From Bacilli bacterium (lineage in GTDB: Bacteria; Bacillota_I; Bacilli_A; RFN20; CAG-826), in assembly GCA_024408095.1 (NCBI GenBank), contig JAKSVI010000005.1, positions 1 through 63,895 of the forward strand: a stretch of 63,895 nt of DNA, in the 5' to 3' direction. Under the pieces are notes generated by a model. That model was not told the origin of the DNA, did no database searches, and saw only the letters and a program-made list of their open reading frames with translations. Position 1 is the first letter of the stretch, and every line of letters begins with the position of its first letter. Shown here one piece after another: positions 12,370 to 13,288 of the stretch. A program made the position numbers and the translations under genes.

Positions 12370-12395
12370 TTGCCACTTCAGCCTTGAAAGGACGA

Positions 12396-12424
12396 TTGAC
12401 TCATCCCGATACTGTTTGTATAAT
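12396..12424 (+). promoter_or_regulatory. sigma70 promoter of putative antitoxin sRNA 1
   Basis: TTGACT-N17-TATAAT. Confidence 0.85.
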
Positions 12425-12430
12425 AATATT

Positions 12431-12474
12431 GTGTGTTTGGAGAGGCGCTAACCATGGCGCACCTCTCTTTTTTT
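12431..12474 (+). ncRNA. putative type I antitoxin sRNA copy 1 (~45 nt)
   Basis: Consensus promoter followed by GAGAGGCGC-taaccatg-GCGCACCTCTC hairpin and T7; convergent with the peptide ORF; ends approximate. Confidence 0.6.
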
Positions 12475-12503
12475 AAGGCCTTTAGACAATCGAGATGTCT
12501 AAA

Positions 12504-12623
12504 CTAATTTAGTTTTTCAAAACCACAATTAGGATCGTTAACGAGAGAATTGCTAAGACAACTTCTAGCATAACGCTCCTTCTTATACAAACAGATGAGG
12601 AATCGTCCCTTACAAGAAGGCAT
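12504..12623 (-). CDS. putative 39-aa leader ORF overlapping the toxin (mok-like), copy 1
   Basis: GGGAGG RBS, ATG at 12623; MPSCKGRFLICLYKKERYARSCLSNSLVNDPNCGFEKLN*. Confidence 0.35.
   Translation of the reverse strand: MPSCKGRFLICLYKKERYARSCLSNSLVNDPNCGFEKLN
12509..12571 (-). CDS. putative type I toxin, 20-aa hydrophobic peptide, copy 1
   Basis: AAGGAG-cgtt-ATG; MLEVVLAILSLTILIVVLKN*; one TM-length helix with a basic C-terminus. Confidence 0.65.
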   Translation of the reverse strand: MLEVVLAILSLTILIVVLKN

Positions 12624-12754
12624 ATTTTCTAAGCCTCCCATATATATAGTTCGACAAAAAATCGAATTTTTATTAAAATTACTTGAAAATTTTTAAAAAA
12701 AGCTTTGTTTTGCTGAAAATTTTGTATTTTTTTGAGCAATCAATGAGAGGACGA

Positions 12755-12783
12755 TTGACTCATCCCGATACTGTTTGTATAAT
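12755..12783 (+). promoter_or_regulatory. sigma70 promoter of putative antitoxin sRNA 2
   Basis: TTGACT-N17-TATAAT. Confidence 0.85.
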
Positions 12784-12789
12784 AATAAT

Positions 12790-12834
12790 AGTGGTTTTCG
12801 AGAGGCGCTAACCATGGCGCACCTCTCTTTTTTT
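12790..12834 (+). ncRNA. putative orphan antitoxin sRNA copy 2
   Basis: Same promoter, hairpin and T7, but the adjacent peptide segment is absent. Confidence 0.55.
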
Positions 12835-12938
12835 AATCCTTTAGACAATCGTGTTTATTAAAATAAGTTAAAAATTTTTAAAAAAGTTTTGTTTTGCAGA
12901 AAAGTTTGCATTTTTTTGAGTAATCATTGAAAGGACGA

Positions 12939-12967
12939 TTGACTCATCCCGATACTGTTTGTATAAT
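12939..12967 (+). promoter_or_regulatory. sigma70 promoter of putative antitoxin sRNA 3
   Basis: TTGACT-N17-TATAAT. Confidence 0.85.
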
Positions 12968-12973
12968 AATATG

Positions 12974-13019
12974 CAGTGGTTTTGGAGAGGCGCTAACCAT
13001 GGCGCACCTCTCTTTTTTT
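12974..13019 (+). ncRNA. putative type I antitoxin sRNA copy 3
   Basis: Same promoter-hairpin-T7 unit. Confidence 0.6.
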
Positions 13020-13047
13020 AGGCCTTTAGACAATCGAGATGTCTAAA

Positions 13048-13167
13048 CTAATTTAGTTTTTCAAAACCACAATTAGGATCGTTAACGAGAGAATTGCTAA
13101 GACAACTTCTAGCATAACGCTCCTTCTTATACAAACAGATGAGGAATCGTCCCTTACAAGAAGGCAT
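13048..13167 (-). CDS. putative 39-aa leader ORF, copy 2
   Basis: Identical to 12504-12623. Confidence 0.35.
   Translation of the reverse strand: MPSCKGRFLICLYKKERYARSCLSNSLVNDPNCGFEKLN
13053..13115 (-). CDS. putative type I toxin, 20-aa hydrophobic peptide, copy 2
   Basis: Identical to 12509-12571 with AAGGAG RBS. Confidence 0.65.
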   Translation of the reverse strand: MLEVVLAILSLTILIVVLKN

Positions 13168-13288
13168 ATTTTCTAAGCCTCCCATATATATAGTTCGACA
13201 AAAAATCGAATTTTTATTAAAATTACTTAAAAATTTTTAAAAAAATTATTTTTGATACATCGATATCATTAATATTTAATGAATCGTA

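Follow-up and report, generated by a model that had tools for sequence, protein, structure and literature searches.

The intergenic stretch at 12384-13245 of the window (the whole 63,895-nt stretch of DNA analysed) is best explained, with a probability of roughly two in three on the sequence evidence gathered here, as a chromosomal tandem array of an uncatalogued type I toxin-antitoxin family, with a minimal antisense RNA on the 3'UTR of the toxin mRNA. The predictions of this reading that can be tested in silico all hold, namely selection on the peptide, a conserved sRNA module, multicopy and patchy occurrence, an orphan sRNA gene, a frameshifted toxin gene and no match to a known toxin or antitoxin family. 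The sequence-only reading of this DNA had spoken of a complete type I architecture; the ORFs, the SD sequences and the sRNA modules are indeed in place, but the wording was overstated, and no toxin promoter could be identified.

Three plus-strand modules, rather than the two counted earlier, are present within 12384-13245, each made of a TTGACT-N17-TATAAT promoter and, after a short tail, a GC hairpin with a T7 run; the promoters (12396-12424, 12755-12783 and 12939-12967) match the consensus at 11/12 positions and the T-runs lie at 12468-12474, 12828-12834 and 13013-13019. On the minus strand, the ORF listing gives two identical ORFs of 20 aa plus stop, MLEVVLAILSLTILIVVLKN, running 12571->12509 (ORF 1) and 13115->13053 (ORF 2), at the very positions reported before, and the AAGGAG SD sequence reported for each can be read four nt 5' of each ATG (12576..12581, minus strand, for ORF 1). 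The 233-nt block at 12469-12701 is 99-100% identical to 13013-13245, ORF 2 having the same SD, leader and hairpin 2 as ORF 1, so that the two ORFs represent a single recent duplication and provide no independent evidence for one another. In the middle unit (12743..12926, plus strand), which comprises sRNA-2 and a spacer, with the promoter at 12755-12783 and the hairpin and T7 extending to 12834, pairwise alignment indicates that the peptide gene has gone by a clean 174-nt deletion between two AATCG microhomologies; this unit is an orphan sRNA gene left after deletion of the peptide gene. The third promoter (12939..12967, plus strand, consensus scan) precedes the predicted antitoxin sRNA-3 (12974..13019, plus strand), the 5' tail of which is unlike that of sRNA-1. 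The array region is AT-rich, repeated and intergenic, and gene callers overlook its ORFs entirely, their lengths being below the cut-offs.

Regarding the peptide, ORFs 1 and 2 encode an acidic residue at position 3, 15 hydrophobic residues and then Lys and Asn (Lys/Arg in relatives), and the family alignment yields the pattern M-x-[ED]-15 hydrophobic residues-K-[KRN] for ORFs of 20-28 aa. Among 12 ORFs of one related genus, codon positions 1, 2 and 3 are variable at 16, 3 and 19 of 19 codons, respectively, and synonymous codon differences amount to 47% in the peptide frame vs. 11% and 3% in the other frames. The contrast between codon positions 2 and 3 (3/19 vs. 19/19) argues that the peptide is translated and under selection, and such comparisons establish it as a conserved coding sequence under purifying selection. 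While the AT-rich, repeated and intergenic nature of the region, and the fact that the identity of the window ORFs comes solely from recent duplication, would suit a non-coding repeat or terminator array with a fortuitous small ORF, this explanation is scarcely credible, being contradicted by a codon-position pattern and a synonymous excess specific to the peptide frame, as well as by the retention of ORF, start and length across loci only ~70% identical and across genera. The product is predicted to be a single-helix membrane peptide and is presumed to be the toxin; under the preferred type I reading, the 20-aa peptide would be toxic. Harmless small membrane peptides are numerous. As for the other frames, the alternative-frame ORFs (39-45 aa) were discarded as real genes, their openness being a trivial outcome of NTN codons and their substitutions being non-synonymous; the overlapping 45-aa ORF returned no match when used as a protein-search query.

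A convergent promoter (10-12/12) followed by a hairpin and a T-run was found at 17/18 related loci, the hairpin sequence differing between lineages, and the comparison thereby establishes the promoter-hairpin-T-run module as conserved across lineages. In the window, the predicted antitoxin sRNA-1 would span ~44 nt (12431..12474, plus strand), its start and 3' end being placed from the promoter and the terminator scan, with a tail of 8-9 nt, a hairpin at 12439-12467 and the T7 at 12468-12474, and it folds at -15.3 kcal/mol; predicted sRNAs range from 35 to 60 nt across loci. Since the hairpins vary in both length and sequence, RNAalifold on a MAFFT alignment of 13 sRNAs yielded no consensus structure, and the sRNAs were judged by per-locus folds instead. 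Hairpin-T7 number 1 lies ~70 nt past the ROK stop codon and probably also terminates this upstream gene, which, along with the position of the loci of the related genus g35 just upstream of the rpsF promoter, could be taken to make the peptide a regulatory leader or uORF, with the promoter-hairpin units as attenuators or terminators for their neighbours (ROK kinase, metK, rpsF). Such an explanation is very improbable, however, considering that each locus has different neighbours (ROK/metK, a mutS2-like gene, rpsF and others), that the window toxin gene points away from metK and is convergent with the ROK gene, that an E...K-flanked transmembrane helix is not usually conserved in leader peptides, and that a promoter with a terminator ~10 nt further on can sensibly be read only as a small RNA gene.

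The sRNA promoter had been described as facing the peptide ORF. The predicted sRNA does not reach that ORF in the window, and usually not elsewhere either; its overlap is confined to the 3' untranslated portion of a toxin transcript that reads through, this convergent geometry with 3'-end overlap and an uncovered ORF holding in the g1, g35 and g9 loci. As the terminator scan revealed no minus-strand terminator before the sRNA region, the toxin mRNA has to continue across it, and the sRNA would in turn be perfectly complementary to the toxin 3'UTR rather than to the ORF or the ribosome-binding site, both transcripts having predicted ends. The duplex energy between sRNA and toxin leader did not differ from shuffles in 11/12 loci (z about 0). 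The minus strand showed no sigma-70-like promoter for the toxin gene, and g35 had none that was clearly conserved; a promoter-like copy in the toxin leader was rejected as a real promoter, its spacer being too short by 6-8 nt.

The leader of ORF 1 contains a stretch, GGGACGATTCCTCATCTGTTTGTATAAG (12582..12609, minus strand), forming an inverted repeat with the minus-strand copy of 12390-12426. As delineated by inverted repeats, fold and duplex, the toxin leader complements a region on its own 3' side that corresponds to the antitoxin promoter in its minus-strand reading. This 3' arm belongs to the mRNA only if the toxin transcript passes through hairpin 1. In the MFE fold of the 262-nt read-through toxin transcript, the 5'-3' helix forms, and the fold-back duplex reaches -50.5 kcal/mol (z -3.2) at the window locus; z values range from -3 to -6 in 7/13 loci, with weaker values of -1.2 to -1.7 in several g35 loci. 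Across six lineages, cognate arm pairing was the best of 720 permutations, and the 5'/3' complementarity proves, at the level of sequence, to be lineage-specific; the cognate vs. non-cognate test for the start-codon-proximal part of the fold-back only, within g35, was not significant (p=0.09). Taken with the modelled folds, the complementary leader and 3' region suggest a hok-like fold-back lock, through which the toxin mRNA would be controlled. Besides, the inverted repeat could instead stem from DNA-level duplication and not from RNA pairing.

Beyond the array, a diverged paralogue at G000:C26 (~4219-4428), 71% identical to the window unit, retains the promoter, hairpin 1, the SD and a 21-aa ORF, MMIDFAIAIVALLLLVIVVKR, as well as hairpin 2, which in the window separates the sRNA T-run from the toxin stop codon (TTTAGACA / TGTCTAAA, 12481..12503, assigned to neither strand) and which shows compensatory changes, 2 of its 8 pairs being changed on both sides and 2 on one side. 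With the exception of this paralogue, BLAST of the unit against 60 relatives gave low-complexity matches only. Together with this paralogue, homologous loci in other genera give independent support that the window locus is no chance arrangement. Such loci occur in at least four other genera belonging to three families of the same taxonomic order, some of them tandem or multicopy, including g35 (13/23 genomes, with one 3x tandem array), g9 (MAELCLVLLMVLLILITLKK, with TTGATA-N17-TATAAT, hairpin and T7), g44 from another family (MVELIIILLLILLIIIVVKNDSNKRN) and g71 from a third family, with at least four copies of MKEIILSLVILLLLIMEVKNDRDVNKKD. An exact-pattern scan of genome contigs for a window-type locus returned two chance matches only (Lachnospiraceae and Chlorobiota), pattern scans of JGI metagenome contigs returned none, and a search of 400 Bacilli genomes across the class with the peptide profile was set aside, its matches being spurious transmembrane segments of larger proteins. 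The plasmid and phage collections contained no match, so that a role in plasmid addiction is without support, and the metK synteny comparison found no ROK neighbour in other genera and thus allowed no empty-site comparison.

This distribution bears directly on whether the peptide is a toxin at all. It could be a conserved non-toxic small membrane protein, e.g. a regulator or a membrane-complex subunit, with its mRNA under a cis-antisense RNA and no addiction module, which is unlikely: the peptide is clearly selected, the g35 locus is stably located upstream of rpsF in many species and looks vertically inherited, and plasmids and phages lack the family, but copies arranged in tandem or numbering at least four, patchy presence within genera (13/23, 1/3 and 1/6 genomes), toxin genes deleted or frameshifted with the sRNA retained, a different genomic context in every lineage and an mRNA with heavy predicted translational locking features all argue against it. 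Type I toxins typically show multicopy occurrence, patchiness, sRNA-only remnants, variable context and mRNA locking, all of which would be unusual in a small housekeeping protein. Loss of the reading frame with retention of the RNA in homologous loci, which the sequence-only reading had named as a mark against a toxin-antitoxin family, was seen in a single one of ~17 lineages, G288, where the toxin is frameshifted and the sRNA intact.

The peptide had not been recognised as belonging to a named family, which is borne out by the searches: no Rfam family was found at the array locus at E<=10, and Pfam and NCBIfam models gave no significant toxin match against 7 peptides, the Fst models (Pfam Fst_toxin and NCBIfam Fst) giving none at E<=10 and Hol_Tox a weak match at E=0.16. 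It is improbable, then, that the array belongs to a divergent branch of Fst/RNAII-SprA1, Ibs/Sib, TxpA/RatA or a Hol-Tox-like family, even though the peptide equals Ibs in size, Hol_Tox matches weakly and M-x-[DE] followed by hydrophobic residues resembles the N-terminus of Fst-like toxins. Fst toxins have a conserved Pro/Gly motif and a charged, acidic tail, both missing from the 20-28-aa peptides of the array family, and neither Fst nor SprA1 shows any sequence or model match to them. [quoted passage not shown] The working contact in Fst and SprA1, i.e. trans complementarity of the sRNA to the translation initiation region, is nonetheless absent from the array loci (z about 0); par relies on direct repeats with an sRNA complementary to the toxin initiation region, whereas the array displays inverted repeats with predicted intramolecular 5'-3' pairing and a hairpin whose T-run is on the sRNA strand only.

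With Ibs/Sib, the array shares very small (18-19 aa for Ibs vs. 20-28 aa), almost purely hydrophobic toxins and tandem, multicopy occurrence, but Sib covers the whole ibs ORF, which the array antisense RNA leaves uncovered, its terminator lying 3' of the ORF; neither Pfam Ibs_toxin nor Rfam Sib matched in the array, and the hosts are Proteobacteria rather than Bacilli. In TxpA/RatA, BsrG/SR4, BsrE/SR5 and YonT/SR6 of Bacillus subtilis, the antitoxin acts via 3'-end overlap and the mRNA-antisense duplex is cleaved by RNase III, leading to mRNA decay (PMC6562991), as is proposed for the array. However, their antisense RNAs (100-220 nt) overlap the 3' end of the ORF, while those predicted here (35-60 nt) usually lie outside it, and their toxins are 38-59 aa long vs. 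20-28 aa, with no homology and no Rfam match at the locus.

Within the type I reading, the strong near-consensus convergent promoter would give rise to a ~45-nt RNA in which a short 5' tail is followed by the terminator hairpin, while the full-length toxin mRNA would extend into the antitoxin promoter region, the reverse complement of which would pair with its own leader and SD region, and this fold-back, similar to those of hok and AapA1, would keep the toxin mRNA untranslated. The abundant antisense RNA would form a ~45-bp duplex beside the lock, which RNase III, the gene of which is present in the window's genome, would cut, thereby promoting toxin mRNA decay as for RatA/txpA and SR4/bsrG, an RNase III dependence put forward by analogy. 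Upon loss of the antisense RNA, trimming of the mRNA from its 3' end as far as the stable hairpin would expose the SD, so that the toxin could be made. More tentatively, several families of uncultured small-genome Bacilli may share a distinct type I design, with the promoter of the antitoxin gene doubling as the 3' arm of the lock on the toxin mRNA, an antisense RNA of 35-60 nt at the 3' flank of the lock only and toxins among the smallest known (20-28 aa); as part of that same tentative reading, the 5' domain of the antitoxin, and not the promoter, may be the 3' arm in one lineage. If true, one short DNA stretch would be promoter, antisense target and translational lock together.

The view that type I toxin-antitoxin systems have a narrow phylogenetic range owes much to searches that set out from known families (PMC12390103; PMC8594479). 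The array would add a family, so far uncatalogued, from gut and rumen Bacilli that are uncultured and genome-reduced. Its 20-aa toxin, antisense RNA of ~45 nt and leader mirroring the antitoxin promoter would make it a compact natural RNA device in which the hok-type model of fold-back followed by 3' processing becomes testable in a Gram-positive 3'-antisense layout, and the family may matter for annotation and for stable DNA maintenance in minimal genomes.

Regarding the leader itself, the array resembles Hok/Sok and AapA1/IsoA1 (Helicobacter) in an apparent long-distance 5'-3' lock hiding the ribosome-binding site, which in the array is a predicted fold. Sok and IsoA1, though, bind the 5' part of the mRNA whereas the array antisense RNA would bind its 3' end; unlike in Hok/Sok, the antitoxin promoter itself serves as 3' arm of the predicted array lock, and the array peptide does not reach half the length of Hok, occurs in a different host phylum and has no HOK_GEF domain match. 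The array leader may form local alternative anti-SD hairpins, comparable to the metastable structures of AapA1 (PMC6733600). As in mok, an upstream leader frame with its own SD and ATG overlaps the toxin frame: at 12621..12639 (minus strand), an SD GGGAGG (12639->12634) precedes an ATG (12623->12621) that is located 52 nt upstream of the toxin start codon, in a different frame. The openness of this leader frame across the toxin ORF is a trivial result of NTN codons; an analogous SD and ATG are found 42-61 nt upstream in the genera g35 and g9.

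Between a ROK-family kinase gene (11401-12369, + strand; Pfam ROK, 1e-66) and a SAM-I riboswitch (13323-13427, + strand; Rfam RF00162, 47.4 bits vs. a gathering score of 44.4), the latter matched with a shortened P2 region and directly followed by metK (13475-14665) beyond a terminator (13445-13468), the intergenic array of the window is made of repeated units. In units A and C (12384-12742 and 12927-13245, respectively), the minus strand carries the 20-codon ORF MLEVVLAILSLTILIVVLKN with AAGGAG 4 nt before the ATG, i.e. the identical ORFs and SD reported by the sequence-only reading are present in both, while the plus strand displays the promoter TTGACT-N17-TATAAT (11/12 each), an 8-11-nt tail, a GC-rich hairpin, T7 and a second small hairpin. 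The promoter and hairpin-T7 modules described by that reading are real but were counted as two, when the window has three: unit B (12743-12926) exhibits promoter, hairpin and T7 and misses the ORF, SD and leader. Since the 233-nt block with ORF and leader is 99-100% identical between units A and C, it must reflect one recent duplication. The deletion in unit B amounts to 174 nt, spans ORF, SD and leader, and has AATCG at both borders; as judged from its sequence, this unit is an orphan gene for the predicted sRNA. Besides, a plus-strand promoter-like site, TCGACA-N17-TAAAAT (10/12), occurs at 12651-12679 and 13195-13223, just upstream (in the toxin sense) of each leader of the presumed toxin, and would drive transcription in the direction of the following sRNA unit, leading away from the toxin.

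The source assembly (1.11 Mb, 65 contigs, 31.8% GC) contains one further locus, on contig C26 (~4219-4428; L023), at 71% identity, where promoter hexamers and spacing are the same and hairpin 1 (before T7) is kept, while in hairpin 2 (between T-run and toxin stop) 2 of the 8 pairs are changed on both sides and 2 on one side; the GAAGGAGG SD is retained and the ORF has 21 aa (MMIDFAIAIVALLLLVIVVKR). In C26, the module is squeezed in between the 3' end of a gene and the beginning of a mutS2-like gene. Weak matches to a covariance model built on the sRNA region were obtained in g35, another genus of the same family, with records from rumen, reticulum and horse faeces. BLAST within this genus uncovered the locus in 13 of the 23 genomes, one of which has three units in tandem; the peptides include MQELILVLLLVLLILVALKKSSKK, MQEIILVLLLLLLVLVAFKRLLKNK, MQDLFLVLVVILLLLVFVKRR and MQELVIILVVVLLLLVVVKRK. 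With a profile of these peptides, further members of the same layout were found in genus g9 of the same family f1 (MAELCLVLLMVLLILITLKK; 1/3 genomes), in g44 of another family, f8 (MVELIIILLLILLIIIVVKNDSNKRN; 1/6 genomes), and in g71 of f3, a third family (MKEIILSLVILLLLIMEVKNDRDVNKKD; four or more copies in a single genome). Among 400 Bacilli genomes sampled across the class, no convincing member turned up outside this order. The family alignment gives the common pattern M-x-[E/D], 15 hydrophobic residues, K-[K/R/N] and an optional polar tail. The g35 loci (L033-L047) all lie directly upstream of the rpsF promoter and leader in the same orientation; a conserved GGGCnnnnGCCC hairpin adjoins the sRNA -35 box there, and a conserved block, GGTCTAACTTTATC, is located ~105 nt upstream of the toxin.

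Comparison of twelve g35 ORFs shows that the peptide gene is truly coding: variable sites amount to 16/19, 3/19 and 19/19 at codon positions 1, 2 and 3, respectively, and 47% of codon differences are synonymous in the peptide frame, against 11% and 3% in the other two. Overlapping ORFs of 32-45 aa in another frame were rejected as a gene, given their non-synonymous evolution and a trivially open frame, as NTN codons cannot give a stop in that register. As to loss of the frame with retention of the RNA, the toxin ORF is altered in two g35 species with the sRNA module intact, namely G288 (C5, L036), where a 1-nt deletion results in MQELILVLLLCY*, and G145 (C136, L037), where loss of the stop codon extends the ORF to 37 aa through the hairpin; on sequence grounds, this is sporadic decay rather than a systematic frame loss speaking against coding.

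Regarding the convergent sRNA, the best promoter scores 10-12/12 in 17 of 18 loci and is followed by a tail of 8-16 nt, frequently starting with GGUU. Next come a hairpin, with folding energies of -9 to -15 kcal/mol, and a T-run, the end being separated from the stop codon of the toxin by 5-45 nt. Nearly every lineage has its own hairpin sequence, at a conserved position and in a conserved orientation. On the toxin strand, an A-run precedes the hairpin, a U-run after it is absent, and no minus-strand terminator was found at the locus; therefore, a toxin transcript would have to cross this region and be fully complementary to the predicted sRNA. Altogether, the probability that the peptide gene is conserved and real, together with its convergent sRNA module, is put at about 0.9. 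The sequence-only reading could assign the peptide to no named family, and indeed no Pfam or NCBIfam model matches any peptide (best, Hol_Tox, E=0.16 against a 23-bit cut-off) and Rfam has no match at the array locus.

Complementarity of the sRNA to the toxin initiation region is no more than chance, which points to an action at the 3' overlap with the toxin mRNA, in the manner of RatA/txpA and SR4/bsrG, where the duplex is cleaved by RNase III and decay follows (PMC6562991); an RNase III gene is encoded in the source genome. A recurrent feature is an inverted copy of the antitoxin promoter region in the toxin leader, as in the window (GGACGATTGACTCATC...CTGTTTGTATAAT vs. leader GGACGATTCCTCATCTGTTTGTATAAGAAGGAG), C26 (GGTTGACTTGT...CTATTTGTATAAT vs. 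GGTTGACTTGTCTATTTGTATAAGAAGGAGG) and g35 (GGGCnnnnGCCCGTTGAC, with a similar copy, e.g. GGGCATTTGTCTGTTGAC); the leader similarly copies the -10 region in g9 and, in place of the promoter region, the sRNA's own 5' domain in g71. In a toxin mRNA that reads through, the 5' leader and the SD would consequently pair with the 3' end of the same molecule. This fold-back helix is present when the predicted window transcript of 262 nt is folded to its MFE structure. The duplexes lie at -36 to -55 kcal/mol; their z scores are between -3 and -6 at 7 of the 13 loci and only -1.2 to -1.7 at others. When the 5' and 3' arms of six divergent lineages are permuted, the cognate assignment ranks first among all 720 permutations, while the cognate pairing test on the variable part, in g35 only, was not significant (p=0.09). 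The combination of 3' antisense action and fold-back is put forward tentatively, as plausible and somewhat less probable than even. In g1 (the source genus), g35 and g9, a strong upstream SD and ATG precede the toxin start by 42-61 nt, the ATG being mostly out of frame with the toxin and in frame at two loci; since the toxin's own SD is weak in g35, coupling of its translation to this upstream leader is plausible there.

The predicted antisense RNA has the 3' location described for the Gram-positive families of T1TAdb, and it leaves the ORF uncovered like that of Fst and SprA1 (PMC8594479). It is shorter than any of theirs. Because initiation-region pairing does not exceed chance, the family is set apart from Fst/RNAII and SprA1/SprA1as, the working contact not being the same. 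The toxin falls in the Ibs size range, and the sequence suggests fold-back inhibition reminiscent of hok and AapA1 mRNAs and an upstream SD and ATG reminiscent of mok. Current reviews place type I systems in Proteobacteria, Firmicutes and Tenericutes, a range limited by homology-based discovery (PMC12390103), and no report of such systems in these uncultured lineages was found in the literature.

In genome G235 (L089 and L097, two contigs), the peptide MNEIGLILILVLLLIIVIKKDPPN(KR) matches the family pattern, but the search for a convergent promoter gave nothing convincing (7/12); this relative may be more distant or under a different regulation. Genome G413 carries a related module in four or more near-identical copies (contigs C19, C7, C5 and C24; L090-L093). 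They occur in different genomic contexts, each with ~100 nt of conserved upstream leader, and may represent a mobile or actively duplicating cassette; here the predicted sRNA (~60 nt) extends over the final codons of the toxin, and the 5' domain of this sRNA resembles the toxin leader.
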